From the NCBI GenBank assembly GCA_038887295.1, contig JAWAKW010000001.1:100795-164794 (forward strand): 64,000 bases of DNA, in the 5' to 3' direction. This DNA comes from Candidatus Anstonellaceae archaeon. GTDB lineage: Archaea; Micrarchaeota; Micrarchaeia; Anstonellales; Anstonellaceae. A program made the position numbers and the translations under genes. Positions within the stretch are counted from its first letter, which is position 1, and the number at the start of each line of letters is the position of its first letter. This document shows, in pieces, positions 9,198-64,000 of the stretch. The notes under the pieces are model-generated. The model was not told the origin of the DNA. It ran no database searches and worked only from the letters and a program-made list of their open reading frames with translations.

Positions 9198-9273
9198 AAT
9201 GCCACCTATAGCTTGCGCAACAGAATGACTGGCTTAAAGTGCCCCTATTTTCTCAAACAAGGTTTAAAATAGC

Positions 9274-10116: not shown

Positions 10117-10120
10117 AGCA

Positions 10121-10507: not shown

Positions 10508-10511
10508 GCCC

Positions 10512-11723
10512 TTACCCCAAAATCTTTCCGCATTTTTCTAAAACCCAAACCAGCTTTTCCACCTCTTCCTCTGTATTGTAAATATAAAAGCTGGCTCTGC
10601 AGCTTGCCTTCTCTCCCAACTCCTTAAGCAACGGCTGCGAGCAGTGGTGCCCCGCCCTAATACAAATTCCTTCCATATTTGCAAACTCAGCCACATCGTG
10701 CGGGTGGATTTTTCCAATGTTGAATGAAACAAGACCAGCTTCTTTCCTTTTTGGGCCGTGTATCCTTGCTCGCGGAATCTTCTCTATTCTCTCAGCAAGC
10801 ATTTGCGCAAGCAAATTCACATGCTTGGAAATTTTTCCCATTCCGATTTTGCGCAAGTAGTCTATCGCAGCAGCCAGGCCCACTGCCCCTGCAACGTTTT
10901 GCGTACCTGCTTCAAACCTTTGCACAGAGTCTGCAAATTCAGTGCGATGCAAACTGACGCTTTTTATCATATTCCCTCCGAACAAAAATGGGGAAAGGTC
11001 TGCCTGTATCTCCTTTCTTATATAAAGCACTCCTACCCCCATGGGGCCACACATTTTGTGGCCAGAAAAAGCAAGAAAATCGCACCCTATCTCATGTACA
11101 TTAATTGGGAAGTGTGGTGCGCTTTGCGCAGCATCAATACAGCTGTATGCCCCTGCCTTGCGCGCCAGCCTGCAAAGCCTTTTTGCGTCATTTTCCACAC
11201 CAAGCACATTGGATGCATGGGCAAAGGAAAAAATTGCGCATTCATCTGCAAGCCTTTCTTCAGCCTCAGCGCAATCTATTTTCCAATCAGGTCCAATCCC
11301 GACATACTCAAGCTTTGCGCCAGTTGCTTGCGCAGCCGCTTGCCAAGGCACAATATTGCTATGGTGCTCAATCTTCGTCAAAAGCATCCTTGGCTTTTTT
11401 GCAAGCCTTCCCCTTATCATGTGCGAAACTGCATTCAAAGATTCAGTAGTATTGCGCGTAAATACTATCTCTTCTGCATCTGCCCCGATAAACTCTGCAA
11501 CCTTCTTCCTTGCCTGTTCGTATTCCTCTGTCGCCTCCACAGAAAGCCAATAAGATGAACGGTGGACATTTGCATTGGAATTCAGGTAGTACCTTCTGAT
11601 TGCTTCTACCACTTGGATCGGCTTTTGGGTGGTTGCAGCATTGTCCAAATAGACAAGCGGCTTCCCATTGACTTTCCTTTTGAGGATGGGGAAATCCTTT
11701 CTTATCCGCGATACATTAACCAT
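10512..11723 (-). CDS. sufS: cysteine desulfurase SufS
   Basis: IRKDFPIL, YLDNAATTQKP, EHHSNIVPW, FSGHKM (PLP Lys), RAGHHC; start moved from 11921 to 11723. Confidence 0.95.
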   Translation of the reverse strand: MVNVSRIRKDFPILKRKVNGKPLVYLDNAATTQKPIQVVEAIRRYYLNSNANVHRSSYWLSVEATEEYEQARKKVAEFIGADAEEIVFTRNTTESLNAVSHMIRGRLAKKPRMLLTKIEHHSNIVPWQAAAQATGAKLEYVGIGPDWKIDCAEAEERLADECAIFSFAHASNVLGVENDAKRLCRLARKAGAYSCIDAAQSAPHFPINVHEIGCDFLAFSGHKMCGPMGVGVLYIRKEIQADLSPFLFGGNMIKSVSLHRTEFADSVQRFEAGTQNVAGAVGLAAAIDYLRKIGMGKISKHVNLLAQMLAERIEKIPRARIHGPKRKEAGLVSFNIGKIHPHDVAEFANMEGICIRAGHHCSQPLLKELGEKASCRASFYIYNTEEEVEKLVWVLEKCGKILG

Positions 11724-30140: not shown

Positions 30141-30248
30141 TGCAGGGAGGGAGATTTGAACTCCCGATGACCTAAAGTCACCAGATTACCTATTGCCATA
30201 AGACAGATCTTGAGTCTGGCGCGTTAAACCTGGCTCCGCCATCCCTGC
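30141..30248 (-). tRNA. trnL: tRNA-Leu(CAA) with 22-nt intron at canonical 37/38 position
   Basis: Acceptor GCAGGGA/TCCCTGC-A; anticodon stem CCAGA/TCTGG around CTCAAG|A once intron 30187-30208 is removed; long variable arm; T-loop GTTCAAATC; no encoded CCA. Confidence 0.93.
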
Positions 30249-45836: not shown

Positions 45837-45860
45837 GGCAAACTTCAGTTGCCTCTCTTC
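45837..45860 (+). other. 3' arm of the 23S processing stem, overlapping the end of the convergent CDS
   Basis: Perfect 24-bp complement of 42883-42906; 45845-45860 also encode KRGN-stop on the minus strand. Confidence 0.85.
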
Positions 45861-48800: not shown

Positions 48801-50305
48801 CTTCTGCTCTTATTCCTAAATGCCAGCCACTCAAGAAAAATAGTAAAAAGTGTCTTTCTCCATTCATCAGATGAAAATGCTTTCAAATTTAACGATTCTC
48901 TCAAACCAAAAAGAAGTGCAGCTGCAACTCTTTTCAAAACTCCTGCGTTTTCACCTGCCCCAATAGATTCCATGAACTCTTTCATATCCTTTTCTAGTCT
49001 GTTAACTCTTTTTTGTTCTTCAGAACTGAGGCCCGTGAAAAAAAGTCGCACCGCTTCAAATATATCAGTTGCAGTTAAAGCTACAATTCCTGGTTTGGGG
49101 GGCAGTCGTTCGTCATCTTTGCTTCGTGTTTTTGATGGACCCTCACTTCCCTCTTTACCCTTACCTCCAACTTCAACTACTTGCTGCCTTTGAAGGGAAT
49201 GTACTAAATTTTTATTTTGTAGTTTATTTTTTGAGTTTTCAATTTTTTTCTCCAATTCAACGATCCTTCCCTCTACTTTCTGTATTGTTGAATTCAGCTT
49301 TCCAAGGCTTCCTTTCAAATCATTTAGCTCTTTCTTTTCATTATTGGTCAGATTTTGTTTGCTTTCAAGCTCTCGAATCCTATTTTCAACTTTATTTTTT
49401 GTATTTTGCAGTTCAGAAAGAGTTTTTTTGCCTTCGTCCAACTTAATCTGTGTTTTGTTTAATTTTTCTGCATCGGTCAACCCGCCAGCTGCAAAGTACA
49501 AATACTGAGAACTTGTTTGCAAAAATTCCATAGCCTTAGCAAGTACCTTTCCTATAAGCATGTTCAGCTGCCCAGTTATGCTGATTTTACCCCCACTGAA
49601 CGTATCAGCCATCTTGTCGAAGCCGATTATATATTGGATTATATCAAAGCTTTTTTGCTGAACTCTCATTGAGTATTGTCTGCCTCTTCCCATTCGCGGA
49701 GCAGAAAAATCAAAGAAAGAAAATGGATTTCTTCCTGCTGCAAATGACGCCCCAAGAAGAAGAGAAAAAATCAGCATGAGAGGCCAGCAAAGAGGAGCCA
49801 TATCCACAGAAGGCGTATTGCATATGTAAAATTCGTTGTGAGAAGGCAAGTAGTTCAAATACTGAAGTGGTACCTTTCTCGTGCCGCATGGTGGAACAGC
49901 AGTATAGGTTTGAGGAATTGAGCTTAATCCGCTTTTGTTTAAGCATTCTTTCGTGTTTGCATCAACAGGACAAAAAATATACCAATAATCAATACATCTT
50001 TGGGCATTCGGATTGTATTCGTGTACAACTTTCCCTTCACTATCTGTCACATCATAGCATACACTAGGGTTAGTAAGCGGATCATTTTGCATTCCAGATA
50101 AGTTCACACGATACACAAGCGCATTTTGGATTGGCATCTTGTCATAGTTTCCGCTTATATTGTAGACTTTGACAATTATCTTTCCATATGTTTCATCCAC
50201 TACTATGTCCATGTATGAAGGTGTTGGTGCAGGAGGGCAAATAGGAGAAGAGTTTGCAAAAACAACCATTGCAACCAATAAAAGCGCAACAAACGCTCTC
50301 GTCAA
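45845..50305 (-). CDS. giant membrane-anchored coiled-coil protein (1486 aa), unknown function
   Basis: TTG start with GAGGTG SD; signal peptide; Cys-containing ectodomain of ~150 aa; TM at ~aa 172-190; heptad-rich segment at aa ~278-365; long Lys/Glu-rich helical remainder. Confidence 0.85.
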   Translation of the reverse strand: MTRAFVALLLVAMVVFANSSPICPPAPTPSYMDIVVDETYGKIIVKVYNISGNYDKMPIQNALVYRVNLSGMQNDPLTNPSVCYDVTDSEGKVVHEYNPNAQRCIDYWYIFCPVDANTKECLNKSGLSSIPQTYTAVPPCGTRKVPLQYLNYLPSHNEFYICNTPSVDMAPLCWPLMLIFSLLLGASFAAGRNPFSFFDFSAPRMGRGRQYSMRVQQKSFDIIQYIIGFDKMADTFSGGKISITGQLNMLIGKVLAKAMEFLQTSSQYLYFAAGGLTDAEKLNKTQIKLDEGKKTLSELQNTKNKVENRIRELESKQNLTNNEKKELNDLKGSLGKLNSTIQKVEGRIVELEKKIENSKNKLQNKNLVHSLQRQQVVEVGGKGKEGSEGPSKTRSKDDERLPPKPGIVALTATDIFEAVRLFFTGLSSEEQKRVNRLEKDMKEFMESIGAGENAGVLKRVAAALLFGLRESLNLKAFSSDEWRKTLFTIFLEWLAFRNKSRSEDFIEKLVKKIENLIGKDAFLIAAYINEPARLPLGLNIFQNAIQLINAEVETVLYSKGKDTVIIYGNIVEKNGKECLYIETRWGKGLLIDKNGKIEEIEQLEKDKRGKEGFLLYDASGNKLILSSDNKEVAQFQKNRWRYNQAIFTKLSIGGADERMLAAMAAYVESLHDTYKALRQGNAEDIKTAFVVERTAKERVESVAYLLEVGQRIKFLEHHISKAQEINEDGRKKALEQAKAEYEEKMKNNPEQVEQLKFELSLLEKIYGASQEQLNEAKNLIESEKLSGWIDDLKRYAENMVYLADCDYEIALKMRKGIVNSEEFSKYYNATTYLREKYGQEINVEKAEKIMGEIGKIAMNSNGIMWVDSLVENMSDKQKQEFEGQKKSLNEALSLVADAIHYKETGGGAEKKLETKTETFTSEIKSVLREYISTLRNPKEIKEFVESTRNAGLFTEIKNAAEDSNNKEVVIKISVPTEHYGATFGWKYNLLLSFALMTEVANNAGLNNEIKGKEVGIVTQNGLERMLDISKYYEKYKKKDESEMKILNVNEILNSGKVVVFTGREKTFDGVQLEEGKVYVAVKENDQIKIYENEGAKVKIERPDFIAKTGQDLIKMMDEGKISFDTIKNEIKYIRILVDEGKVKTIDISKTNETNLRNLLNMEEYKENNIYFTFRNAKTSMIRQTLYGNDYAITVSATREVTKQVEVPGEDKKSWDPFKDLILLNTEMRNSMEALKSDLRPYTSFAEKQNAILTSKVSIPPTISLYGDEDKSILWEDYKKMSVDEKEKIWEENMKKNDKEMLSIIQKNIEEGIKKEMYSSAVSQQAVELKKVVGDLSSELQVATPQNYNRISKLIDIVKDTEYELYTAPSEKDLIFGKGTPYENERLAETSQYWVGRSPFLTDYKTVTDVFVHERKDAEKIQLKIEQNIEFLKLEINSIKEEKRDAHSQQIKDELEKRRNELWRPSLERRTEETWKKLEEESKKRGN

Positions 50306-50314
50306 ATCCCCACC

Positions 50315-53300
50315 TCACGATATTCTAGAACAGAATAAATGATTATTCGTTATAGGTATTTTAACATTACAATATTGAAGTACGCTAGTATCTGGTACCC
50401 TTCCACAATCAACCCCAACCTCCCCTCTTCTTGGGTATTGTATAAGTTCGTTCCTTTGCTTGATTGCTTCAATTTTGCTATAAGTATACCTTATCTCCGA
50501 GCCAGTTCTGGCATCGCTTGTATTAAGGCAGCATTTATCCTTGTTTGGCACTGATGCAAGTATGTCCCAATAATCATCTGAAATGTCAGAGTAATTCTTC
50601 AGAGCTTGAAATATCTCACCCATGCTGGTTTCAATTCTGCAGAAAAGATTACTTTGCCCAGGTTGCGGCGCAGGCATCTGGCTGCATCTTGTGCATGCAG
50701 AAAAGTTCACACACATTGCAGGACATCTGTAATATGAGTAGTTCGTCCATGTCGGATCAGGCATACTACATTTTTTGCTGTCTAGGCAGTAAAGCTGTGG
50801 CAAGTCTTCATCACCAGGCTGGTAATTGACATTAGGCATGCAATAGCCACTTGCAATATCCGCTTGGCTGCAAGGCTCGCATATACATGTTTTGTTTTCT
50901 GCATAAACTTTCTGTCCATAAGTCATCTTGTTTATACCCAAAATCTTCCTCGAGTGATTTTGCAAGGAGCAAAACACATCAGTCTTGCTTTGCATCCCAA
51001 GTCTTTCAAGAGTTAACTCGTTTGCAGAAATAATATCTGTTGTACCAGTTTTTACCCCCTTGTCCCAGTTCGGTTTGTTATAATCTACATAAATCCTTCC
51101 ATCCTTAGTCAGCCATGCATCGTATATAAGTCCAATTACTCCAGCATCCACCATATCTGCCTGATGGTCGAACAAGTAGCTGAGAAACTTATCAATATTG
51201 CAATTTGTATTCCTTTCAAAATGAAATCTCCATATAATCGAAGGGCGAGAATAATTTTTCAGAAAATTCCTGCTAATGTTCATTCGATAATTGAATTCCC
51301 TCTCTATCTTTTCTTCGTCGCTCACTCCTCCTTTGTTGCACTTCGGCACCCATTCTTGAAGCAGCAAATCAACATAGCCCGGATACTCGTCAGGGACAGC
51401 ATTTGCTATTCTCCACTCCCTCCCTCTTTCTCCGGGCTTGTAAAAGAAATCATCAAGGGTCGAATATACATCCGCTTCTCTCCCTTCTGGATCGCCCACA
51501 TCAATTGCAATAAGCGGTGGGTTCTTGCTTGTTTTCTTAAAGTAGACTGCAGTGTAGATGGTGAGGTTTTTTCCTCCATTAAGATATATTCTCTCATTAT
51601 TGGATGTTTTTTTAATATTCAAATATTCTGCAAGTTCCATGTTATATGCCCCATCCATAGACCAAATCGAGCCCCTTAAGCTTTCGTTTTTTATATGTGT
51701 CAGATTGGCTATAGCATAAATAACTGCACCATCTATGTATGGTATTTTTTTCGTCTGAGAAAACTTTATTTCAGGCCCATATTTAGTTTTAAGAAGACCT
51801 TCTATTATCATCATGTGCCATTCGACGGCCGAAAGATACGGACCACCTTCGCTTATATCCAAGATAGGCATGACTCCTGCTGCAAGATAGTCCCTCGTCT
51901 TTTGAACTACAAATGGAAGAGACGGTTCCATCATGAGTGGCGTATGCCATCCATGCTCAGAAGATGAAAATCTAAATTCCACATTCCTTTCTGGATCAAA
52001 CCAATTCCGCCCCCACCCATCGGTGCATATATACTCTGCAGTATGTCCATCAACTCTTTGGTCATAAAATCCTCTTCCTAACCAACCATCTTGGTCATTT
52101 CTTATTTTTCCTTCAACTACAAAATCTCTGCTTACAGGATTAATATCATAAGCATTATTTCTTGTACTTCTTCCGTCAGCCATCATTGTTGGGATTCCAC
52201 CATCTGAAGCAGTGTAATTATAATAGGCTCTAAAAGAATAGCAATTATATTTCCAAGGGCTCATTCCAAAGGTTATTTTTTGAACAGCTAAAGTTGCATA
52301 CGTGCAAGGTGCACACCAACCAAGAGTTCTCAGCTCAAGGTAAGGTGCTGTTGCTGCTTGTGGCACGTCGGTCAGTTTGCATCTTCCAATCGCCCCCTGC
52401 CCGTTGACCGTAGTAAAATCAAGATGATATGCAGAAACATAAACTCTCCAGCCTTCTTTCTGCACTTTTTGTCCTGCAGCGTTATACGTCTCTTGCGTAC
52501 ATAGAGGCGAATCAGTAGAAGGAATTTTAATTGACGGAGAATTTTTAGAATAAAGTTTTATGACGCCAGATGTGTCAATCATGCACATTTCAACCTGAAC
52601 AAATACAGAAGGATCTAAAGCAGCTTGCTGTATTTGGGCTTGTGAAAATAAAAGGTCTGTCCTCAACGGTTTGACATTGCAATTCTTCAAAAATTTATTA
52701 GATTCATTTGGCAGTGCAGGTCTTGAAGAGGCATATTTCTGTGTTATAACATATATTGCACCTTTTTGTGGATTTATTCGCCCATCCAATACTAAATTGG
52801 ACTTAGAAAGTTCAAAGCCAAATTCATTAATTGACTTATTAAAAGTGTTAACTACATAAAACGTCCCACTCCCCGCAAATCCATCTTCAACATAACCACA
52901 GTTTATTCTATCTAACCCTTCCCTTTCACATCCGCAATCAATTAACCCCGGACCCATAACGTCTTTGCAAGAAGTCCTTTTGTAAACTGTCTTATCACAA
53001 ACTCCAGATAAGCAATCGATATCACTTTCACATTCAAAATCAGAAGCCTTTTGAGGATCGGATATTTGTTTTCCTAATTGCTTCTCATAGTATTTGTTGT
53101 CAAGTTCAAGAGAAAATTGTCTATGTTGTTTCCACTTCATTCCTTGTCTATGCCCCTCAGTCGCATCACTCCAGAGACATTCTCTTGTACCTTCTTTATC
53201 TAATGGACACGTATAAGGTGCCTTATCAGCACAGTCATGATGGAGATTGAACGTTGATCCTTCAGCCCTCCAATTTTCTTGCTTGCAAGCTTCTTTATAT

Positions 53301-54385
53301 GTTTGGTCACAACTTGAAAAAAGATTGCACGAGCTTAGATAAGTATTTGTTCCGTATATATAATCTGCCTGAAGCACGCTTCGATATCTTGCGTCTGGCT
53401 CAAGGAAAGGGAATTTTTGGCTGTCGTTTGAGCAAGCGTCAGGGTCAGAAAGTATTTGACATTCGTTGAGGCAAGCCTTCTTGTCATCATAAAGAAATTC
53501 TGTGTCTATGCATCGGTATTTTTGGCCTGCGCTTATGGGATTGCAATCCTGTGGCGGGAGAAGTCCAAAGCAGTAGTTTTGGCATTGCTGTTGACTTGAG
53601 AAGTTTAAGCCGTTTTTGCTACAATGATAAGCAATGCCACTGTATTCCCCACACCATGTTGAAGGAGCATTCAAATAATTCATGAATCTATCTTTCCCTC
53701 CCGTTCCGGTAAGCGAACAGAATCTGTCAGATACTGGAAAGAAATACCTTGCCTGCTCAAAATCAGAATAACTTCTCCCAACTCCAAATCTAAACGAATT
53801 TACCCAAAGATTTGTCTTAGCTTGGCGCATCTGATTGTAAAGCCTCTGGTTCATCTCCTTGAATGCACAACTTGTGCCAAATAAGCCTCTGCCAGATAAA
53901 GCGTCTCCACCTGATGCAGAAATAGGGGCAGTCTTCTTGCTTTCATCAAAGTCGCTTGCAACCGGAGTAGGACCAACCTCAAATTTTGAGTATCCACATA
54001 CCATTGCAACACATTTTTCATTTATACATTTTGAAGGCGCCGGATCTGCGCAAATTGGAAATATTTTGTATGCAAGCCCACCTTGGCAAATAGACTGTGT
54101 TTCATTCCAGTAGCAGCTGCTTGTCTTGAGGCATTCTGTTTTTGTCAGGCTAAGGCACTGTGTTCCATCGGTGCAATTTGCAGCACCTTTAGTGGTTGTT
54201 GCAACATCGCAGCTTCCATACACTGTGCCATTAGTGAAATTGCAAATCGGATTTGCAAGCATAACCGAAGGATCTGAACCATTCAAATCAAATATATACT
54301 GTCGCTGGCAGCAGGGGACATATTCATTGCTCGTGCAACCCAAGGCAAGAAACAAGAATCCAATTAAAACTGCCCATTTTTTCAT
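50315..54385 (-). CDS. giant Cys-rich secreted/lipoprotein-like protein (1356 aa)
   Basis: MKKWAVLIGFLFLALGC lipobox-like signal; dense Cys in N- and C-terminal regions; many N-x-S/T sequons; no C-terminal TM. Confidence 0.85.
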   Translation of the reverse strand: MKKWAVLIGFLFLALGCTSNEYVPCCQRQYIFDLNGSDPSVMLANPICNFTNGTVYGSCDVATTTKGAANCTDGTQCLSLTKTECLKTSSCYWNETQSICQGGLAYKIFPICADPAPSKCINEKCVAMVCGYSKFEVGPTPVASDFDESKKTAPISASGGDALSGRGLFGTSCAFKEMNQRLYNQMRQAKTNLWVNSFRFGVGRSYSDFEQARYFFPVSDRFCSLTGTGGKDRFMNYLNAPSTWCGEYSGIAYHCSKNGLNFSSQQQCQNYCFGLLPPQDCNPISAGQKYRCIDTEFLYDDKKACLNECQILSDPDACSNDSQKFPFLEPDARYRSVLQADYIYGTNTYLSSCNLFSSCDQTYKEACKQENWRAEGSTFNLHHDCADKAPYTCPLDKEGTRECLWSDATEGHRQGMKWKQHRQFSLELDNKYYEKQLGKQISDPQKASDFECESDIDCLSGVCDKTVYKRTSCKDVMGPGLIDCGCEREGLDRINCGYVEDGFAGSGTFYVVNTFNKSINEFGFELSKSNLVLDGRINPQKGAIYVITQKYASSRPALPNESNKFLKNCNVKPLRTDLLFSQAQIQQAALDPSVFVQVEMCMIDTSGVIKLYSKNSPSIKIPSTDSPLCTQETYNAAGQKVQKEGWRVYVSAYHLDFTTVNGQGAIGRCKLTDVPQAATAPYLELRTLGWCAPCTYATLAVQKITFGMSPWKYNCYSFRAYYNYTASDGGIPTMMADGRSTRNNAYDINPVSRDFVVEGKIRNDQDGWLGRGFYDQRVDGHTAEYICTDGWGRNWFDPERNVEFRFSSSEHGWHTPLMMEPSLPFVVQKTRDYLAAGVMPILDISEGGPYLSAVEWHMMIIEGLLKTKYGPEIKFSQTKKIPYIDGAVIYAIANLTHIKNESLRGSIWSMDGAYNMELAEYLNIKKTSNNERIYLNGGKNLTIYTAVYFKKTSKNPPLIAIDVGDPEGREADVYSTLDDFFYKPGERGREWRIANAVPDEYPGYVDLLLQEWVPKCNKGGVSDEEKIEREFNYRMNISRNFLKNYSRPSIIWRFHFERNTNCNIDKFLSYLFDHQADMVDAGVIGLIYDAWLTKDGRIYVDYNKPNWDKGVKTGTTDIISANELTLERLGMQSKTDVFCSLQNHSRKILGINKMTYGQKVYAENKTCICEPCSQADIASGYCMPNVNYQPGDEDLPQLYCLDSKKCSMPDPTWTNYSYYRCPAMCVNFSACTRCSQMPAPQPGQSNLFCRIETSMGEIFQALKNYSDISDDYWDILASVPNKDKCCLNTSDARTGSEIRYTYSKIEAIKQRNELIQYPRRGEVGVDCGRVPDTSVLQYCNVKIPITNNHLFCSRIS

Positions 54386-55492
54386 TCAGCTCAGCCTCGC
54401 AATTGCCCTCATCAGTTCCCCCAAATCGCCGCCTAGCAAGGGCGTTGCAGACCTGATAAATATCAATGTTATTGCAAGAGCTACGAATGGGTAAAAGATA
54501 GAAGTGATAGTTATTTGATAGAGTAATTCTTTCCCTTGAGCCATCGCAAGCGCGTTCTCATCTCTTTCCGCACCAATTTGAAGAGCAGTGTTCAGTATCA
54601 CAGCTACTCCCCTAAATCCACTAAAGCACATACCTGCAAGCTTATCATCAAATTTCTTGTCATTGGCTTTGATAAATGTTGGGTCTGTCAAAACAAAAAA
54701 GGTCGGCCACACAAAGTAAAACCCAACCGCAATTGCAATCAACAATCCGCCAATTCCTCTTGTAAGTGGAAGTATCCTAAGCAAAAGGCCAAGAGGAAGA
54801 AACACCGCAAGCATATTTTTTTGTACATAATCAGCAAGGGCATACTGTGCATGCAAAGAAATCAAAAGGCCAACTATCTTATTGCAAAGAAGATGCGCCT
54901 CTTCAACTGCTTTATGCACAGCTAAATCCCAGTCCCAACACCATACAGGAAATCCGAAGATGCTTATGCAGGTTGAAGCAAGAGTCTCCTTTGCCTTGTT
55001 GGCCTTGAATATATTTGCATAATGTCTGTCAAGCGCACTTACTTTTTCTTGTATCTTGCATTTGAATGCGCCAATCGGCCCGCCTCCATAATCAGCAGTT
55101 TTCCAAATATAATATCTCCCGCCTGGCACAGCATTGCAGGCAACACTGCCACCCGTGCCTATTAATTGCTCCATTATTCCAAAAGCTCCATAGTTTGATA
55201 CTTCAAAAAGAAGTTCCACAACAAAAAGAATCATTAAGGAAGATGCAGAGACTTGCAGCATTTCGGTTTTAGCATACCTCTTGAGATTTTCTGCTTGAAG
55301 TGCATATCCTACCATATAAATCAAAATATTCAAAAACAAGCAAACTAGCAGTGCATACCAAGCTATCCCTCTCCATTCTCCTGATGCACCCATCTTGCTT
55401 TCGAATTTTGCTTTTTCAGATTCTGCTAAATTACTTACATCAATTGGATAAAGAAGTGAAAACAATGCAAATAATAAAAGTATTCTTTTCAT
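54386..55492 (-). CDS. CedA/VirB6/TrbL-like membrane protein, paralog 6 of tandem array
   Basis: IYMVGYAL...AKTEMLQ hairpin, FLPLGLLLRILPLTRGIGGLLIAIAVGFYFVWP core, LGGDLG tail. Confidence 0.7.
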   Translation of the reverse strand: MKRILLLFALFSLLYPIDVSNLAESEKAKFESKMGASGEWRGIAWYALLVCLFLNILIYMVGYALQAENLKRYAKTEMLQVSASSLMILFVVELLFEVSNYGAFGIMEQLIGTGGSVACNAVPGGRYYIWKTADYGGGPIGAFKCKIQEKVSALDRHYANIFKANKAKETLASTCISIFGFPVWCWDWDLAVHKAVEEAHLLCNKIVGLLISLHAQYALADYVQKNMLAVFLPLGLLLRILPLTRGIGGLLIAIAVGFYFVWPTFFVLTDPTFIKANDKKFDDKLAGMCFSGFRGVAVILNTALQIGAERDENALAMAQGKELLYQITITSIFYPFVALAITLIFIRSATPLLGGDLGELMRAIARLS

Positions 55493-56820
55493 ATCATCTG
55501 CCCAAGCTTGCTTATATCTACTTCTTCCCCAAGCAAGTGCGCAACACCCCGCGCAACCGCAGCAATCACTATGAAATTGACTGCTGCAAAAAATACTACT
55601 GTGATAAATATTAATCCATTAGCGCGTATAACCATATCTAAAGACGCAGGCACAAATGGAAGGTCTGCAGTCAAACCTCCAAGGCCAAATTCAATTCTGT
55701 GGCCAGAGACAAGCGACTCTTCATTGTAGCATGCTTGAGACGGAGCACACATTACATTAGATGGTAAATCCTTATAGGAAAATATCTCTACCCCCTTGCA
55801 TCCACATGCATTAAATGATATGAGGCTTTGTGTGTTTGCCATCCCAGGCGCAATTGAAGCGTTTATCACCAACATTGTCGGGTACATGATATAAAGTGAA
55901 ATGCAGATTGCAACAAGTGCCCCTGCAAATTGCCTCATAAAAGGCAAAGAGCGCAATACAATCGCAATCGGAAGAAAAATTAAAAACAAGCCGTTGAGTA
56001 TATATTGAAGTACAAAATACTCAAATGCAGCAGTCAGATACGAAATGGTTGCTGTGTTTGCAAGGTTGTTAACTATTGCAAGATTTAAGGTCTCACCGCC
56101 ATGGGTTGCCTCATTATAACCTGCAAGTGAAATAAAGCAAGAGCCTTTGCAAACCATTTTTGTATATGTAGTCCTAATCTCATAGGCACCTGCCAAATAG
56201 CGCGAAGTTCGCAAATTGGAATGTGCTACATCCATCAGCTTTTCCAAATAAATTATGCTGCCATCATAAATCGATTTTGTCTGGTAAGGTTCGTATATTT
56301 TTGGCAGCCGGGTAAATATCGAAGCAATCTCCCCTATTTGCAGGGTGCAGAAAAGTTGGATAGTCCCAAAAACCACTCCGACAATGATGAGACTTGTAAA
56401 AATTTGCGCTGCCTCAGTTTTTGCCCAAGTAGTAAGTCTTGGATTTTGGATTGCTTCTCCTGCCATATAACCCAATGCTACTATAATTGCAGTTGCAATA
56501 GCTGCCAATGCGGCAAGCCAAAAGGTTTCGCTTGTACTAGACGCGCCACAGATTGGAGCAGACGTAGCAGTGCATACTGCATCAGGCGAGCCTGCAGGCT
56601 CACACTTGACATCGGGTGCCCCACAGCATCTGTTTGGGGTAGCGGCACACTTTGAGCCCAACGAAAGGCATTCTTTGCATGTAGGAGGATAGGAATTTAT
56701 GTCGCAAAAAAGAGCAGGGCAGCAAGGTTCTCCCTGGCATCTTTCACCCAAAGTTGCACACTCTGCCCAGATGCTTTGTGCAAAAGCCATCACAATAACA
56801 ACTAATGCAAAAAGCTTCAT
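55489..56820 (-). CDS. CedA/VirB6-like membrane protein with two N-terminal knottin-like modules (paralog 5)
   Basis: Signal peptide; two C-x6-C-xn-CC-xn-C-xn-C units; GYMAG...AKTEAAQ; FLPIAIVLRSLPFMRQFAGALVAICISLYIMYP; LGEEVDIS tail. Confidence 0.7.
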   Translation of the reverse strand: MKLFALVVIVMAFAQSIWAECATLGERCQGEPCCPALFCDINSYPPTCKECLSLGSKCAATPNRCCGAPDVKCEPAGSPDAVCTATSAPICGASSTSETFWLAALAAIATAIIVALGYMAGEAIQNPRLTTWAKTEAAQIFTSLIIVGVVFGTIQLFCTLQIGEIASIFTRLPKIYEPYQTKSIYDGSIIYLEKLMDVAHSNLRTSRYLAGAYEIRTTYTKMVCKGSCFISLAGYNEATHGGETLNLAIVNNLANTATISYLTAAFEYFVLQYILNGLFLIFLPIAIVLRSLPFMRQFAGALVAICISLYIMYPTMLVINASIAPGMANTQSLISFNACGCKGVEIFSYKDLPSNVMCAPSQACYNEESLVSGHRIEFGLGGLTADLPFVPASLDMVIRANGLIFITVVFFAAVNFIVIAAVARGVAHLLGEEVDISKLGQMI

Positions 56821-58640
56821 CCTATTCTCACCAACCCAGACAAATCTATCTCGCTGCCAAGCACTTTGGCAATGGATGCAATGAACCCAAGAGTTATTAT
56901 GAGGCTAATTATCGAAGTAAAAATTACCTTAACTAGGACAACATAAGTAAGATAGTCTGCTACTGAAGAATGGCTTAGCGCCATAGCGTAGTTTTGGAAC
57001 TGCTCCCTTGAAACAGATATATCCTTTTCATAAGGGTCGCAGGTTAATCCTGAAGGAATACTGGTAGATTGAGGAATAGGCAAAACATCATCCTGTTCTG
57101 CAAGAAGTTTGATCCCTGCCAATATCACCAATGGATAAACAGTGTAAAAGCCAAAACCTATTGCGATCAGAGCCCCGCCTCCCTGCCTGGTGGGTTTGAA
57201 ACATCTGAAAAAAAGGCCCAGAGGTATAAGCAAATTGAAGCCAAAATTTGCCCCCCAAGTAAGCAGAAATTGTTGAGCATACACATCTATCATGCCTGCA
57301 AGCACCGCAAACGACGCCGAAGTCAAGGTTCCCCTGAAAGCGTTAAGCGGGCTGCAGTTTACCAATGTAAAGCCAACTCCAAGCATGCTGCAATATATAC
57401 CTTTTGAGGCTTCCTTTGCTACACGGCTGTTCGCATCCTGAATCTGCAAAAGTATATTTTGTACTCCCAAAGAAGAAAGGCTGTTGTATGCAACGGTATA
57501 TATTTGGTTTGTTCCTGTAAGTGGAATGCTGGTGTCTCCAGAGATTGCAGAAAGAGAGGCAGTAAGATAATCATTTATCATATAAGTAATCCCCACAAGC
57601 AGAAGCGCAACAATCCCGCTAGCAAGCACTTGAAACAGTTCATCCTTTATTATTTCCCCCCAGTGTTGTATTCCAAAAGCCTTGGAAAACATATAGGCAA
57701 TTGCAAGTACTGCCAAAGCAACCAAAAGCGCATAGATGATATATTGAAGATAGCTTCCTGCTGGAAGAAGCTGTGGGGGAGGATAGGGCTTCACCTCTGC
57801 AGGCTCGGACCAGTCTGATTCATTGCATTCCGTGCCAATGCAATTTCTTGTCTGAAGATAAATCTGCTGTCCAGGCATGCAATTTTCTGCAGCGCAGTTG
57901 AAGCTTTCGAGAATCCCATTCCATGCATAGGGCATATCATTTATTTTCCATCGATAGTCTGTTGCAGTGCATCCAGAGACACAATCAACAATGCCATCAG
58001 GAAGGACTTCAATAGGTGCTATTTGTGGTTTTTGTGGCTTGGTTGGATGTCGCCTTTCGCATCTGTTAGTATTTGGGTTGCAAATATAATTTTGGCAACA
58101 ATCATCATTGCTAGTGCAAGATTCACTTGAGCTTTCATTTAGGCAACATTTCCCGCTTTGGCAGTTTTTGCTGCAGCATTGCACACTTTGGGTGCATTGG
58201 GTGTTTTTTGTATAGCATACGACACATACTCCACTTTGGTTGCAGAAGAGACCTGCACAGCATCCGTCAACACCAGGAAATTGATTGCAGCCATATACAT
58301 TTTCTGGAATGCAAGAGCTGCAAAACCCATTATAGCATTTAAGCCCGCTACAACACTCATTATCTGAAGCACACGACTGCCCGCTGCTCTTGCATTGCGG
58401 AACACAGACATTTTGGCTGCATTTTCCTGAGCAGCACTGACTATCTTCAGTGCAGGATGAGCCTAACGGACCGCAGCCGCTACCACCTCCTCCATACTCT
58501 CTGCAGTTACTTATACACTCCTGTATACATGTTTCACCCCGGCCTTCGCATATGTCCTCGCATTGATCACAAGGTACAGACACATCAGCAAATACCATGA
58601 TTGACAGTACAAGCATTAGTGCAATCAAAAGCATTCTCAT
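56817..58640 (-). CDS. CedA/VirB6-like membrane protein with five knottin-like repeats (paralog 4)
   Basis: Signal peptide; five six-Cys repeats at aa 56-194; AYMFSK...IKDELFQ; LIPLGLFFRCFKPTRQGGGALIAIGFGFYTVYP; LGSEIDLS tail. Confidence 0.7.
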   Translation of the reverse strand: MRMLLIALMLVLSIMVFADVSVPCDQCEDICEGRGETCIQECISNCREYGGGGSGCGPLGSSCTEDSQCCSGKCSQNVCVPQCKSSGQSCASDNECCSGLKCYNGFCSSCIPENVYGCNQFPGVDGCCAGLFCNQSGVCVVCYTKNTQCTQSVQCCSKNCQSGKCCLNESSSESCTSNDDCCQNYICNPNTNRCERRHPTKPQKPQIAPIEVLPDGIVDCVSGCTATDYRWKINDMPYAWNGILESFNCAAENCMPGQQIYLQTRNCIGTECNESDWSEPAEVKPYPPPQLLPAGSYLQYIIYALLVALAVLAIAYMFSKAFGIQHWGEIIKDELFQVLASGIVALLLVGITYMINDYLTASLSAISGDTSIPLTGTNQIYTVAYNSLSSLGVQNILLQIQDANSRVAKEASKGIYCSMLGVGFTLVNCSPLNAFRGTLTSASFAVLAGMIDVYAQQFLLTWGANFGFNLLIPLGLFFRCFKPTRQGGGALIAIGFGFYTVYPLVILAGIKLLAEQDDVLPIPQSTSIPSGLTCDPYEKDISVSREQFQNYAMALSHSSVADYLTYVVLVKVIFTSIISLIITLGFIASIAKVLGSEIDLSGLVRIG

Positions 58641-61600
58641 ATTATCCTACTCAGACCAGGTATATCAATATCTCCTCCTAAGGTGGAGGATAATACCCTT
58701 ACAAACGAAATTACCATAACAATAGAAAATAGTGGAAGAACAACCGCAGGAATCATCAAAACTCCAATATTTCTTACATCAACCGCACCCGTTGCAGAAC
58801 CAGGCAATGAAAGCAGCAATTCATCTACACTTGCTGTATCAGATGTAAGATCTTCTTGGCTACACACTTCAGCGCAATCAGTGCGCAAGGGTGGTTCATA
58901 AAGGCAATCATACGGGCAATCAAAGCATCCGTCACAGATACGGGCTGGGACAGGCGGCAAAGCACAACTTTGTTGCTGAGACGAACAGCTCACATAATTG
59001 CAATAGATTTCAGGCATAGGGTCTTGGTTGAGTCTCCTGCAGAGTACTGGGCAATCAAAATAAGGTAAAGAAGTTGGAATATAGCTTCTGCATTCTTGTG
59101 GTCCCCCTGACCTTTTGAGTGGAATGTCTACTCTACATTCGTTAGGGCAAGCGGCAAGGCTGCAGTCAACTTGTAAAGTCTTTATCTCCATATCCTTTAT
59201 CCGCCAATTTTCTGGGCACTGTTTGCATGAATCTATTTCGTTAAACGGATATTCTCGCTGTCCTATAGGTATGCGAACACTGCCTTTGTTTAACCATTCG
59301 CATTCTGTTCCTCTTGAGCGGCAATCTTCTTCTGAAGAAGCACCACCACACTCCCCGCTTGAGAAGTAATTTGATGTGTTATAACAACCCCACTCACCAA
59401 TTAAGTCACGGTTTCCTAAATATTCACTACATACTAATCCAGTTGCAGGGGGGATCCTTACTTTGCAAGAATCAGAGCAATTTTCAGATGCGCATCCCAA
59501 ACTGCTGCACCATAAAGCAAGCAATCCACTCCTAGAATATCCGTATTTGTCAGTTCCCTCAAATTTTATCCGGCATTCAATAGGACATTTGCGGCACTGC
59601 CCTATTTCTCCAGAGGCAAAGTCATAATCTTGACATTCTGGATTGGTTTGGCTATTCGGAACTTGGATCACTCGTTTGCATGCATCACTGCAAGAAGAAC
59701 AGTCTATAGTTTCTCCGTTTCTTTCAGCATAAAAGTTTGAGTTAAAAGCTGGCGGCCCAAAGTAATCAATATTTTCAGAAGAATTTTTATGTAAAAGCAG
59801 AATTCTTACTTCCTCTGGACAGTTCCTACAATATCCTGCTTGTCTATCAAACATATTTGATATCCTGCAGGTTGGCGGGCCCTTCTGAGGCCTACATTGG
59901 TTTTGGCATGCAGACACGGAGCAGTTAACTCCTTCGGCTGCGCATTCCACTGGAATCCCGCCTTCACGCTCAACTGCAGAATATTCGGTTATGAACGAAT
60001 AATCGTTGAATCTGCACATTTCAGGACAATCTGTGCAATTTGTAGATATGTAATTTTTCTGAGGATAAGGATAGCATGCGGGAGTTTCATCAAAAAGAGG
60101 ATTTGAAGGGATTCGGATTCTGCATTCCATTGGGCACTTACTGCAGGCTTCTCTTATTTGCTGATTGTTGCTGCAATAATTTTGCATGAAGTTTTGAATG
60201 TCGTATTTATCAAGCTGGCTGCCCCAGTTTACTCTGCATGGTTTTGGGCAGGACCCGCATACAGATGGGCTTTCACAATCAAAGGTTTCGCCTATCTTGC
60301 TTACATAAGAGCATTCCAGCGGACATCTGTTGCATGCATCGTTTGGAGCCTCTTTACAAAGTTTTTCATCTTTTCTTACAAGCTCCACACTACCGTCAGG
60401 ATTCACTTTTTTAAGAAGACACCAATTCGGGCAGTCTTTGCATACAGTGCAATCTACTGTCAACTTTGCAGCTACTGCATTCCCATCAGATTTGACATAG
60501 CATTTGTTTTCAAATGGAATACTGGCTTTGCATCCTTCCTGACAAAGGCTGGCCGGGCATTTTGAAGCACAATCGGTTCTAATTCTCATTACTTTACATC
60601 CAGGATTGCACTGGGCACAAGCTACAGGGTCGCATTTTGGCTTATTTCTTGGAAATGGAACCTCTCTGCATTCTTGGGGGCAACCGCTACAATCATTCTG
60701 AATACCATCCAACTCTTCACAAGCAACCAAGCCAGGAAATTCAGCTTTTCCATCTCCATTTATGTCCCCTGTCGCCCAATTGGTTGCATTTATGCCTGCA
60801 CGCTTCAAATCTTCTTTCGTTTTGAAGAGTATCAGCCCTCCAGTTGTATTGTTTATATAAAATGCAACAGGCGGAGAAAGTTTGCACTCAGCAGGGCAAT
60901 TTTCAGAGTCCTGCCCAACGCGCTCACCGTACACACTGATTTGGAGAGTGTACCAAGCAAACGCATATGTTAAAGGATAAACTACGAATATCGAGATTCC
61001 TATTGCAAGCAATAGCCCACCTAATCTTCTTGAAAAGAAAAAGGTGCGAAGCAATATCCCTAAAAGAAGAAGTATCGGAGCAAGCGCAAAGGCAACCACC
61101 TCTATAAAGTAGCGCTGTGCGTATATGCTTGCAAGCATCCTGGTTGCGTTCTCAAAAATTATTCCTGCCCTTTCTGCCTCAATTGATCTTCCTGCATTTG
61201 GCCGAATAACTACGCTTGCATAAGCCATCATTGCAACGTTTGCAACTGTATTTACACCAAGATTGGCAGACTTTTGTTCTTTTATGCTTTTTTTCAGCGC
61301 ATCCTGAGCATAGGTTGAACCTATCTTGTAAATGCTGTCAAGATAAGTTTTGGCAGCAGTGATATAGCAAGGTTCTGCGCCACTACAAACTATAGGAAGA
61401 TTGCTTGAAGCCACAACTGCACTTGAAATCTGGTCAAGGAAAATTATCACTCCGATTATGCTCAAAATTAATATTGCTGAAACAAATGCCTGTCCAAGTT
61501 CAATATCCACAAATGCCTTTATTTCATTTAAATTGAATGCATAGCCAACCATCGCAGCAATCGCAATTAGAAGGATTGCAATCATCACTCCTGTCAACGC

Positions 61601-61933
61601 AGAAAACTTCCAATCTGAAAACCATCCAGCCTGATATACCCCGCTTGTTTGCCCAATAGCACTTCCTTTTGTCCTGTTCCCTTCTTCAAGTGCTGTTATC
61701 ATCTGTGTGATATTCTTCTGAGGTAAATAAGGCACAGATGGCTGATATACATATTCCCATTCAGAAGGGAAAAGCTCACAAATAAGGGATGGTGGCTGGG
61801 TACATTTTCCTGAAGCCAAATCGCATATTAGAGGCGACACGCAATCTGAATTCTGGTTGCATGGCTGTGCGTATGAGCTTGCAGCAGAAATTGCCGGCAA
61901 AACCAAAATGAAAATCAAAAATTGCTTCATCAT
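58637..61933 (-). CDS. CedA/VirB6-like membrane protein with ~690-aa CxxCP-repeat loop (paralog 3)
   Basis: Signal peptide; AMVGYAF...VDIELGQ; LLGILLRTFFFSRRLGGLLLAIGISIFVVYP; long Cys-repeat insert; LGGDIDIP tail; start moved to ATG 61933 (GGTG SD). Confidence 0.72.
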   Translation of the reverse strand: MMKQFLIFILVLPAISAASSYAQPCNQNSDCVSPLICDLASGKCTQPPSLICELFPSEWEYVYQPSVPYLPQKNITQMITALEEGNRTKGSAIGQTSGVYQAGWFSDWKFSALTGVMIAILLIAIAAMVGYAFNLNEIKAFVDIELGQAFVSAILILSIIGVIIFLDQISSAVVASSNLPIVCSGAEPCYITAAKTYLDSIYKIGSTYAQDALKKSIKEQKSANLGVNTVANVAMMAYASVVIRPNAGRSIEAERAGIIFENATRMLASIYAQRYFIEVVAFALAPILLLLGILLRTFFFSRRLGGLLLAIGISIFVVYPLTYAFAWYTLQISVYGERVGQDSENCPAECKLSPPVAFYINNTTGGLILFKTKEDLKRAGINATNWATGDINGDGKAEFPGLVACEELDGIQNDCSGCPQECREVPFPRNKPKCDPVACAQCNPGCKVMRIRTDCASKCPASLCQEGCKASIPFENKCYVKSDGNAVAAKLTVDCTVCKDCPNWCLLKKVNPDGSVELVRKDEKLCKEAPNDACNRCPLECSYVSKIGETFDCESPSVCGSCPKPCRVNWGSQLDKYDIQNFMQNYCSNNQQIREACSKCPMECRIRIPSNPLFDETPACYPYPQKNYISTNCTDCPEMCRFNDYSFITEYSAVEREGGIPVECAAEGVNCSVSACQNQCRPQKGPPTCRISNMFDRQAGYCRNCPEEVRILLLHKNSSENIDYFGPPAFNSNFYAERNGETIDCSSCSDACKRVIQVPNSQTNPECQDYDFASGEIGQCRKCPIECRIKFEGTDKYGYSRSGLLALWCSSLGCASENCSDSCKVRIPPATGLVCSEYLGNRDLIGEWGCYNTSNYFSSGECGGASSEEDCRSRGTECEWLNKGSVRIPIGQREYPFNEIDSCKQCPENWRIKDMEIKTLQVDCSLAACPNECRVDIPLKRSGGPQECRSYIPTSLPYFDCPVLCRRLNQDPMPEIYCNYVSCSSQQQSCALPPVPARICDGCFDCPYDCLYEPPLRTDCAEVCSQEDLTSDTASVDELLLSLPGSATGAVDVRNIGVLMIPAVVLPLFSIVMVISFVRVLSSTLGGDIDIPGLSRII

Positions 61934-61937
61934 ATCT

Positions 61938-62861
61938 CTACACCGCAATTGTTCTTAAAGCTTTAGAGATGGCATTCACACAGGTTATCAGCACCACCAA
62001 CACAAGATTTGGGATGAAAATTGCCTGTGGTAAAGTGGAGGAGAGTCGATAAAGAAGGCTATCTTTTCCAGTCCCATCTCCAAAAGCTTGTTTGTCTTCA
62101 AACGAATGCCCCGCAATCTGATATGGATTTTGCATGATTTTTGCATACGTGTGCGCGCTTAAAGCATAAACCGAAGGAACAATTATGTATAGCCCGAAAA
62201 AAAGCGCAATCAAAATATTGCCATATTCGCGGGTCATTGGAAATATCCTCATGACAAACGCAAATGGCAAAAGCACAGCGGCACCTACAAACTCCACCAT
62301 TGAAAGGAGATATTTTTGTGCATTTAGGCTTGCAATTATCGGAATATAAAGATCTATTAGAAATTCTTTATGTGATGAAATTGCTCTCCATGCGGCCATA
62401 TGAGCCATCCCATAACCTTGATAAGGAGTAAATCCTACAAAAAGATAAGCAGTTGCATCAAGCTGATTGCCATAGCTGGAATAGACCAGCTCGCGCACTA
62501 TTGCAAGCCCATTATTTACAAGCAAAGAATTTATGTAAGCATATGAAGCTTCGAATGGGCTTTTGCCGATGTATTCCACTGCCAAGCGGCAAGACCCAGT
62601 GAAAAATGTAAGTAAGCCAACAAGCAGTACAATGGTAACTAGCAAATTCTGCGCCTCATCCTTTGCATAAGTTTCAGCCTTTATATTGTGCGCAAGCTTG
62701 CCATACATGTAAGCAATGCTTATGATAAGGGACGCAAGCGCAAGTGCATAACCTATGAATGGAAGAGCATCCGGATGGAAATTGCTTATCTCACATACAT
62801 CTGCATAATTGGCTGCAGCAACAGCAGGCACAAGCAATGCTACAATAAAAACAACATTCAT
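61938..62861 (-). CDS. CedA/VirB6-like membrane protein, minimal form (paralog 2)
   Basis: AYMYGKL...AKDEAQN; LLPFAFVMRIFPMTREYGNILIALFFGLYIIVP. Confidence 0.7.
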   Translation of the reverse strand: MNVVFIVALLVPAVAAANYADVCEISNFHPDALPFIGYALALASLIISIAYMYGKLAHNIKAETYAKDEAQNLLVTIVLLVGLLTFFTGSCRLAVEYIGKSPFEASYAYINSLLVNNGLAIVRELVYSSYGNQLDATAYLFVGFTPYQGYGMAHMAAWRAISSHKEFLIDLYIPIIASLNAQKYLLSMVEFVGAAVLLPFAFVMRIFPMTREYGNILIALFFGLYIIVPSVYALSAHTYAKIMQNPYQIAGHSFEDKQAFGDGTGKDSLLYRLSSTLPQAIFIPNLVLVVLITCVNAISKALRTIAV

Positions 62862-62863
62862 TT

Positions 62864-64000
62864 TTACACCAATTTGCTTAAGCCATAAAGCTGCGGCTCT
62901 CCTCCAAAATAAATTATGAAATTCCTTGCTGCAACCACACCTATTATTATCGGAAGTAAGGAGAAAACTAAAGCAAGCACCCCATACATGCTTGTTGCTG
63001 GAAGAGTATACTCTGTTACATTGGCTATGGCCGCATTAATATTAACATAACTATAAAGTGAAAGAAAGGGATACATCATCATGCTAAAGCCTGCCTTTGC
63101 AATAGCAAATACATTCCTTACATCGGCCCAGCATTGAGTTAGTGGGTAACCCGTAGTCACCTGAAGCACAGGGCATATCAACAAAGCCCATCCGTTTTCC
63201 CCACTTAGAATAACCCCACCAAATCCTCCAATCAAACTTCCGATCGACCCACCCACAGTTGAGGAGATAGCAGACACCACAACTCCAAGAGGGCTTTGGA
63301 TGAAGGCTTGCATTGAGGGGTCACATACAAAATTTGTAAGCGGTGGATTTGTAATGTCTGGCAACACATTAATGCCTTCTATGTATTGTACAATGTGCGG
63401 GGAAAAGGTGGAATAGATTTCATGAGAAATTGCAAACGAGGCAGGATAGATCACGGAAGCTGCAATCGAAGCCCCTAGAATGGTTCCGCCTATCTTTCTT
63501 GTAAGTGAAAAGCACCGCAAAAAAATACCTACAGGCAAAAAAATTGCAGCAGTGTTGACAAAGAAGATTACAAATGATTTTTGCGCAGACAAAAATAGCA
63601 GATAGTTTGCAATTCCATCCATTGCAAAGCCTAATTCTGCAATCAATGGTGCAAATCCTGCACCAGGGGTCTGAGTAAAGCTTGTGCTTACTAAATGGAG
63701 ATTCAACCCGGCAGTATAAGTATATGAAGCATATCTTGCGACATTGAAATAAGCTGTTGCAAGCTTAAGATAAAGTGTCCTCCCATCCTCTCTTATTTTT
63801 GAAATAGCATCCAAGGCGTACTGCCCTGCACCCATCTGCTTGCCTGAAAGAAAACTTGCTGCAGCATCTGCACTTGCAATCATTCCGACACAAAATACTG
63901 CAATCAGAACTCCTGCGAAAAGCTCCTGAAGCTCCACTTTAGTCCATGCCTCAAGCAACTTAAGCTCAAAAAAAGAGCCTATCATGTATGCAATTCCAAT
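62864..64000 (-). CDS. 5'-truncated CedA/VirB6-like membrane protein (paralog 1)
   Basis: Frame is open to the window edge (IGIAYMIGSFF), so the track ATG at 63985 is internal; WTKVELQE; FLPVGIFLRCFSLTRKIGGTILG..IYP; FGGEPQL tail. Confidence 0.7.
   Translation of the reverse strand: MGIAYMIGSFFELKLLEAWTKVELQELFAGVLIAVFCVGMIASADAAASFLSGKQMGAGQYALDAISKIREDGRTLYLKLATAYFNVARYASYTYTAGLNLHLVSTSFTQTPGAGFAPLIAELGFAMDGIANYLLFLSAQKSFVIFFVNTAAIFLPVGIFLRCFSLTRKIGGTILGASIAASVIYPASFAISHEIYSTFSPHIVQYIEGINVLPDITNPPLTNFVCDPSMQAFIQSPLGVVVSAISSTVGGSIGSLIGGFGGVILSGENGWALLICPVLQVTTGYPLTQCWADVRNVFAIAKAGFSMMMYPFLSLYSYVNINAAIANVTEYTLPATSMYGVLALVFSLLPIIIGVVAARNFIIYFGGEPQLYGLSKLV

Follow-up and report, generated by a model that had tools for sequence, protein, structure and literature searches.

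Five tandem modules with a predicted knottin fold on a CedA/VirB6-like membrane protein encoded in a Micrarchaeota operon

The 64,000-nt stretch analysed here (the window; part of contig JAWAKW010000001.1 of assembly GCA_038887295.1) comes from an Anstonellaceae archaeon of the Micrarchaeota, and its locus of interest is present in four hot-spring metagenomes. On the minus strand, an open reading frame (ORF) of 607 residues (56817..58640) carries near its amino-terminus five consecutive six-cysteine modules, for which the fold of a knottin, or inhibitor cystine knot (ICK), is strongly predicted. The modules are followed by an Ig-like domain and by a membrane domain which we treat as a remote member of the CedA/VirB6 superfamily, and its gene stands fourth in an operon with six paralogs. 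With moderate confidence, we favour a reading in which the array forms a disulfide-locked, stable stalk that presents a variable tip for contact, as part of a CedA/VirB6-like complex.

The five C-C-CC-C-C modules lie in frame at exactly 58475-58059 of the minus strand and comprise residues 56-194 of the protein. This is where a first-pass annotation, made from the sequence alone, had placed five six-cysteine modules, and all five of its peptides are in frame. Module 1 (residues 56-79, 58404..58475) is followed by module 2 (residues 83-107, 58320..58394), which is the most canonical and to which 53 other modules align. Next come module 3 (residues 110-139, 58224..58313) and module 4 (residues 142-165, 58146..58217), the latter predicted with the lowest confidence in the full-length model. 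Module 5 (residues 166-194, 58059..58145) abuts module 4 without a linker, Cys165 being adjacent to Cys166; over the whole array the modules are joined by 0-3 residues. The pattern C-x3-9-C-x3-10-CC-x2-6-C-x3-10-C, searched in all six frames of the window, gives eight matches: these five, two at the amino-terminus of the next paralog (443 residues, 55489-56820, minus strand; modules at 56572..56760) and one stray match in a non-coding frame. When residues 20-200 were shuffled 2000 times with their 20% cysteine content kept, the pattern matched 0.2 times on average and at most three times, compared to the five matches observed. Tandem Repeats Finder reports no repeat at the DNA level, which indicates that the modules are old, diverged duplicates; a recent tandem duplication or an assembly artefact was rejected on the same grounds.

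A profile was built from 54 aligned modules, taken from the 607-residue protein, its paralog, orthologous loci and other family members, with the consensus xxCxxxGxxCxxxxxCCxGxxCxxxxxxC. Against the PDB sequences it gives 96 matches at E ≤ 10, of which the best 60 are all cystine-knot-type mini-proteins. The top match is the double-ICK toxin Xt3a (E = 4.3e-7), and the remainder of these 60 are knottins from venoms, sponges and plants, including hainantoxins, purotoxin-6, murinotoxin, asteropsins, a wrightide and squash trypsin inhibitors. In Pfam scans of the single 607-residue protein, Conotoxin_I2 (22.3 bits, gathering threshold 27) and Dickkopf_N (18.8 bits, gathering threshold 25) both remain below threshold, as do the UPF0506 match and, for the 368-residue paralog, the CedE match in the Pfam and NCBIfam scans. 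A word-indexed search with residues 50-200 returned a sole match, P0034 (E = 2.6e-3). The latter is a 460-residue lipoprotein from a high-GC genome, apparently bacterial and unrelated, in which alternating six-Cys and four-Cys repeats resemble the archaeal modules.

Modules 1 and 2 (residues 53-109) were modelled with AlphaFold2 using the module alignment, with a mean predicted local distance difference test (pLDDT) score of 87.1. Each module contains a beta-hairpin bearing Cys V and Cys VI (20-23/26-29 and 49-51/54-56, respectively). A Foldseek search of this two-module model against the PDB gives 65 matches at E ≤ 10, and the best 50 of these 65 are mostly knottins. The spider toxins Pn3a, hanatoxin, SGTx1 and JzTx-XI, together with AcaTx1, superimpose with root-mean-square deviations (rmsd) of 0.9-1.4 Å over 25-28 columns; for the spider-toxin knottins the target-normalised template-modelling score (TM-score) is 0.6-0.7, with E-values of only 0.7-2. 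EETI-II, superimposing at about 1 Å, and other squash inhibitors are also among the matches listed. In the full-length model, the pLDDT is 73-87 for modules 1, 2 and 5 and about 60-75 for module 3. The modules are thus strongly predicted to fold as ICK mini-domains, in which the disulfides would pair I-IV, II-V and III-VI as in an ICK, with III-VI passing through the ring. The assignment is a strong prediction rather than a demonstration, since this pairing is presumed and the alignment was selected on its cysteines. At this level, the ICK-like framework proposed in the first-pass annotation is borne out, as the comparison suggested there (AlphaFold and Foldseek, run on modules 1 and 2 against the PDB) gave mostly knottins among the best 50 matches.

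The protein opens with a Sec-type signal peptide (residues 1-19, MRMLLIALMLVLSIMVFAD, 58584..58640, minus strand, as are all segments given here; hydropathy 2.63). The distal tip that follows has the pattern C-x2-C-x3-C...C-x3-C-x3-C (residues 24-46, 58503..58571) and is modelled, with low confidence, as two short helices; a GGGGSG linker joins it to the module array. Beyond the array, a Pro/Lys-rich linker (residues 195-215, including RRHPTKPQKPQIAPIEVLPDG, 57996..58058) with the family-conserved motif PPxKPxxPxI leads into an Ig-like beta-sandwich with six cysteines (residues 216-290, 57771..57995), modelled with pLDDT values above 90. The family motif of this domain is CxxNCPPSPxPxDP...YxW...C..GC..G..I.L..RAC...C.ES., and its Foldseek matches are weak (E of about 0.1-0.3), being to the N-domain of chitinase A and to Ig domains of Fc receptors. 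No Pfam model describes this six-Cys domain, and 10-25 copies of it (CxxNCPPSPxPxDP...YxW) are found in each of the giant proteins P0060, P0063, P0067, P0089 and P0095, which are 2000-4800 residues long and were matched by the family profile. The carboxy-terminal part (residues 291-607, 56820..57770) is the CedA/VirB6-like domain, in which hydropathy and the AlphaFold2 helices agree on about five transmembrane helices. Its core hairpin is lPlGlffRcfkpTRxgGGaLIAiGfGfYtvYP and its cytoplasmic carboxy-terminus is GSEIDLSGLVRIG.

The topology is N-out, C-in, and the ectodomain is acidic, with 42 cysteines distributed in even numbers over its segments (6 in the tip, 30 in the modules and 6 in the Ig-like domain). 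The signal peptide, the N-out topology with five transmembrane helices and the even cysteine counts support an extracytoplasmic location for the modules. The display of the array outside the cell and its fusion to a putative channel subunit, both proposed in the first-pass annotation, are consistent with this topology and with the polytopic, CedA/VirB6-like nature of the carrier; the array may, as also proposed there, take part in host recognition. At the opposite end of the protein, a cytoplasmic motif, G-[SGE]-[ED]-x-[DQ]-[LI]-x-x-L-x-x-[IVL], terminates five of the six paralogs (56820-56858 in the 607-residue protein, and at 54386.., 55489.., 58637.. and 62864..). Across the family it is nearly invariant, as GSEIDVSxLARIS, and it could be a docking site for a cytoplasmic partner.

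A hidden Markov model (HMM) of 33 orthologs matches each of the other five operon-encoded membrane proteins with E-values from 3e-25 to 6e-9, identifying the six as paralogs, and a family profile searched against 1.84 billion representative sequences gives 1953 relatives at E ≤ 1e-3. In an NCBIfam scan of 86 short family members, Ced_CedA is matched by 24 (best E = 8.5e-8) and CedE by 10 (best E = 1e-5), while each other NCBIfam family is matched by one member at most. The first ten members scanned for CedA gave no match; a second set located the matched region, which falls on the core transmembrane hairpin, lP.G..lR...tR..GG.LiA...g.Y..YP. The 368-residue paralog matches CedE with E = 3e-3 (17.4 bits, cut-off 400). 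As these scores are far below the cut-offs, the membrane domain belongs to neither curated family. No recurrent family was found by Pfam among the 86 members, and the full-length family profile matches nothing among the PDB sequences, VirB6 included. For the full-length model, Foldseek ranks TrwI/VirB6 of R388 (7o3v_F) first, with a marginal E-value of 1.1e-2 and a probability of 0.82. In the DNA-import system of Sulfolobales, CedA and CedE correspond to VirB6 (PMC9905601); they are paralogs of one another, and a hetero-oligomer has been proposed for them (bioRxiv 10.1101/2024.09.27.615246).

All 15 loci from species-representative genomes belong to Micrarchaeota and have the six paralogs in constant order; the same order is found in every complete locus among 19 fetched (about 14 distinct contigs). 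What changes is the paralog that bears the modules. Paralog 4 has five in the window, three in locus L001 and four in L002, and also bears modules in L010 and L016; paralog 5 has two in the window and six in L019 (10918-13827), and also bears modules in L003 (11007-13280). Paralog 1 bears one to four modules in L011-L014, L017 and L018 (three to four in L013, 2904-4583, and in L014), and paralog 3 occasionally bears one. In L003, the paralog 4 ortholog is bare (340 residues) and paralog 5 (757 residues) has the modules, the linker and the Ig-like domain. In L008 none of the paralogs has modules, suggesting that they are dispensable for the core machine. Modules occur in 22 of the 174 family sequences retrieved, with up to eight per protein; other members have CARDB-like, beta-helix or multiple Ig-like ectodomains. 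As the paralog that bears modules, linker and Ig-like domain varies from species to species, these sequences indicate that the ectodomain is a cassette that is shuffled and expanded while the membrane platform stays constant. Two members, P0039 and P0069, have about 1000 residues of amino-terminal parallel beta-helix-like repeats instead of knottins, and in P0069 these sit on a membrane domain of the paralog 1 type.

Identity to two orthologs was calculated segment by segment. It is 63-68% for the transmembrane domain, 48-60% for the Ig-like domain, 47-63% for modules 3-5 and 33-44%, mostly cysteines, for modules 1-2; the tip is unrelated, the orthologs carrying a different Cys-rich domain of about 150 residues in its place. 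Divergence grows outward, from the membrane to the amino-terminal tip. A similar concentration of change is seen on comparison with L005, a metagenome-assembled genome of 98% identity. Codons 22-47 make up 4% of the gene and contain 7 of its 25 nucleotide differences and 6 of its 11 amino-acid changes (binomial p of about 6e-5); all cysteines are retained and no residue of the five modules differs, the 139-codon array having one nucleotide difference, which is synonymous. The six-Cys tip hairpin is a candidate specificity tip.

In one of the four metagenomes (run X1), a second strain is present at about one third of the depth, represented by assembler unitigs and not by a resolved allele. It diverges by about 4.5% in the unitig of the transmembrane domain, by 10% over 57834-58186 and by 14% over 58161-58262. 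Alignment at 80% identity fails over 58263..58635 (minus strand), a stretch that contains the signal peptide, the tip, modules 1 and 2 and half of module 3. The unitig of the second strain has the same length of 505 nt, is joined at both ends and re-joins at 58636. At this unitig level, the amino-terminal divergence is suggestive.

A mechanism can be proposed in which Sec export and removal of the signal peptide would leave the amino-terminal 270 or so residues outside the cell. From the tip inward, the protein would then consist of a helical hairpin with six cysteines, a glycine linker, five knottins, a proline-rich linker, the Ig-like domain and the channel-like domain with its five transmembrane helices. 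A stalk resisting heat, acid and proteases would be built from the five near-rigid knottins, the linker and the Ig-like domain. It would hold the fast-evolving distal end off the membrane, probably across the surface layer of the cell itself, so that this end could contact another cell or surface. The six paralogs may assemble into one complex, an idea suggested by the carboxy-terminal motif common to paralogs and by the fixed six-gene order. The stalk role, the contact with a partner or host and the six-paralog complex are what we infer from the features described above. We entertain only tentatively a fuller picture, in which the first archaeal knottins would crown a hetero-oligomeric CedA/VirB6-like ring of six paralogs, a conjugation-derived pore for cell-to-cell docking or transfer, retained in the core genome of Micrarchaeota for exploiting their hosts, and in which an arms race over host range would swap and diversify the distal ends between strains that co-occur.

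Several observations weigh against the proposal of a knottin stalk on a CedA/VirB6-like complex. The cysteine pattern weighs heavily on both the AlphaFold2 model and the profile, and the module alignment, having been picked with a regular expression for six cysteines, has no power to contradict it. The Foldseek E-values of the two-module model are weak (0.09-5), as the domain is tiny (25-30 residues), and module 4 is poorly predicted in the full-length model, with a pLDDT of 41-50. For the membrane domain, the 607-residue protein itself reaches no CedA, TrbL or VirB6 model of Pfam or NCBIfam, and the structural likeness to 7o3v_F is marginal, with a target-normalised TM-score of only 0.29. Neither the window nor the 10 kb around the operon in related loci contains a gene for a VirB4/CedB-like ATPase or a VirB2/CedA1 pilin. 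Finally, the runs in which the locus was found are DNA runs only.

The main rival to a stalk is an array of binders, in which the modules themselves would bind or inhibit a target (host glycans, an S-layer, a membrane protein or a protease), making the array multivalent rather than passive. Known knottins bind channels, proteases and receptors, the profile and Foldseek matches are all to such binders, and the best PDB match, Xt3a, is itself a bivalent double-ICK. Binding would also agree with the faster divergence of modules 1-2 than of modules 3-5, with the impossibility of aligning the co-occurring strain over modules 1-2 and with a module number that varies from 0 to 8 between species. However, the loops between the cysteines are short, contain much Ser, Gly, Asn and Gln and lack any aromatic or basic patch that is conserved, and the modules are dispensable, judging from L008. 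Between strains of 98% identity the five modules are invariant in protein whereas the tip hairpin changes at six positions, which is why a stalk is favoured over five equivalent binders. We regard the binder alternative as unlikely.

A second alternative, which we consider improbable, is that the modules are disulfide-rich without being knotted, i.e. EGF-like, granulin-like, Dickkopf/colipase-like or ladder-like, and act as no more than a generic Cys-rich spacer. The two lowest Foldseek E-values belong to the amino-terminal region of Dkk4 and to draxin, in agreement with the weak Dickkopf_N match in Pfam. These are two-module matches at about 6 Å (6.5 Å for Dkk4), and we read them as an effect of the tandem query. 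Moreover, the Dickkopf/colipase fold has ten cysteines, whereas the modules have six each and are separable repeats; the matches with low rmsd are all ICK knottins, and the CC doublet and the loop lengths suit the ICK framework. Nothing among the profile and fold matches listed, the former being knottins, supports an EGF-like, granulin-like or metal-cluster reading. The outcomes that the first-pass annotation had named as contrary to its proposal, an EGF-like or metal-binding fold or a cytoplasmic location, are not what the profile, the model and the topology showed.

Binding of a metal by the cysteines (Zn, Fe or Cu clusters, or a metallothionein-like arrangement), or a cytoplasmic domain, deserves almost no credence: the very high cysteine content (20% over residues 20-200) and a habitat that may be metal-rich (hot springs) would favour it, but it is opposed by the signal peptide and N-out topology, by the fixed six-Cys framework with its CC doublet, without His or Asp ligand patterns and with even cysteine counts, and by profile and fold matches only to disulfide knots.

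Automated gene calling gives a shorter protein. In the window's own assembly, the call is of 372 residues from Met236 (nt 57935), and for the ortholog in GCA_026413765.1 the NCBI call is of 339 residues. On this basis the gene would begin at Met236, the upstream Cys-rich frame being an untranslated, non-coding or decayed remnant, and the absence of any match to the amino-terminal 200 residues among 5.8 billion database proteins, in a word-indexed homolog search, would be in line with this. Yet such a start is very improbable. The 235 codons upstream of Met236 stay open, with a chance of about 6e-7, and the long ORF begins with an ATG at 58640 that overlaps the stop of the upstream gene (ATGA), as elsewhere in the operon, and continues into the Sec-type signal peptide. 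Met236 and the NCBI start both fall inside the Ig-like domain, which AlphaFold models with pLDDT values above 90. The stop-to-stop frame of the L002 ortholog (8819-11020) has 735 residues and the same layout as the 607-residue protein, and in GCA_964392435.1 the long form, of 767 residues, is the gene as called. From the open codons, the ATGA overlap, the signal peptide, the long orthologs, the conservation of modules 3-5 in protein and the synonymous-only change in the array of the 98%-identical strain, we conclude at the sequence level that the Met236 start is a gene-calling error and that the Cys-rich amino-terminus belongs to the gene. Gene callers truncate Cys-rich amino-termini in this way, and the array is therefore missing from protein databases. 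No exact-sequence record was found for the 372-residue call of the window itself.

In its 2017 release, the KNOTTIN database lists knottins as absent from archaea, the only domain of life without them there (PMC5753296). Searches of the literature gave neither a subsequent report of knottins in archaea nor an account of an operon of CedA/VirB6 paralogs in Micrarchaeota or other DPANN archaea. The modules share with known knottins the C-C-CC-C-C framework, the loop lengths, a Gly that follows Cys I, an acidic residue or Ser in front of the CC doublet and G-L after it, and tandem forms such as the double-ICK Xt3a exist. Known knottins are free, secreted peptides of 30-40 residues, mostly eukaryotic, whereas here five are concatenated and fused, via an Ig-like domain, to an archaeal polytopic membrane protein, with no pharmacophore-like conserved loop seen. 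The likeness may reflect either common descent or convergence. The fold itself is known; we rate as new its domain of life and its fusion context.

CedA/CedE, TedA and VirB6/TrwI are, like the 607-residue protein, polytopic with five transmembrane helices. The systems differ in the number of paralogs, which is six in tandem here and one or two there, and in the large Cys-rich ectodomains and the carboxy-terminal GSEIDxxxL motif, which are not described for CedA or VirB6. The rvh type IV secretion system (T4SS) of Rickettsiales (Anaplasma, Rickettsia, Wolbachia) includes a number of VirB6-like genes arranged in tandem, whose hydrophilic extensions are large and variable. Both sets are tandem, extended VirB6-like genes of obligately host-associated, genome-reduced organisms; the Rickettsiales set is bacterial, comes with a full VirB/D set and has extensions other than knottin arrays. 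A further parallel is provided by the SPEARE giant surface proteins of Nanohaloarchaeota, for which host contact has been proposed (PMC10266531). These too are DPANN proteins that combine extracellular Ig-like domains with a T4SS-type component, but their T4SS-type part is a VirB4/TraG-like ATPase domain and their Ig-like repeats number about 75 (PMC10266531), in contrast to the VirB6/CedA-like membrane domain, single Ig-like domain and knottin modules of the 607-residue protein.

The knottin fold is valued for its stability and as a drug scaffold. Archaeal modules would widen its range, and those from hot springs would be scaffolds already concatenated by nature and presumably thermostable. 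As to the way in which DPANN archaea recognise their hosts and tap them, the operon offers a testable candidate contact machinery in Micrarchaeota, a group with cultivated co-cultures; the steep gradient from membrane to tip probably marks where specificity lies. Through gene-caller truncation, a class of Cys-rich ectodomains is missing not just from protein databases, but also from the surveys built on them.

The operon comprises eight genes in the same direction on the minus strand, with overlapping or abutting ends, running from beyond 64000 to 45845 (45845..64000 within the window). Paralog 1 (62864-64000+) runs past the window end and is followed by paralog 2 (61938-62861), paralog 3 (58637-61948, 1103 residues), the 607-residue paralog 4 and the 443-residue paralog 5 described above, and paralog 6 (54386-55492). 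Downstream of these six CedA-like genes, two giant proteins are encoded (50315-54385 and 45845-50305), for which Pfam and NCBIfam scans and a search against the PDB sequences found no recognisable relatives. Paralog 3 has 83 cysteines and contains an insertion of about 690 residues (58862-60928, minus strand) rich in CxxCPxxC-type repeats, located in the extracellular loop between the last two transmembrane helices; the insertion is kept in every locus, where paralog 3 is 1100-1580 residues long.

The window is archaeal chromosome, with a complete archaeal 23S rRNA gene and genes for Cdc6, SUF, PheRS and phosphoenolpyruvate carboxylase. In the window and in related loci, the genes around the operon are MetAP, KsgA, DUF655 and rRNA genes; upstream, MetAP, KsgA and DUF655 occur in constant order in all four upstream flanks read, including those of distant relatives. 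The operon thus belongs to the core chromosome, and an origin from a mobile element is ruled out by these housekeeping flanks. Just upstream of the operon in two relatives, L001 (3746-4102) and L003 (3852-4190), lies an ORF of 112-118 residues with a zinc ribbon and two transmembrane helices. It was considered as a pilin-like partner and rejected, as it is absent in L005, where the only ORF at this position is antisense to MetAP. A motif scan of the 64-kb window gave no candidate for a thioredoxin-type CxxC protein. Lastly, Rfam identifies a tRNA of 108 nt at 30141-30248 of the minus strand in a window where ARAGORN reports no tRNA; it is probably an intron-containing archaeal tRNA.

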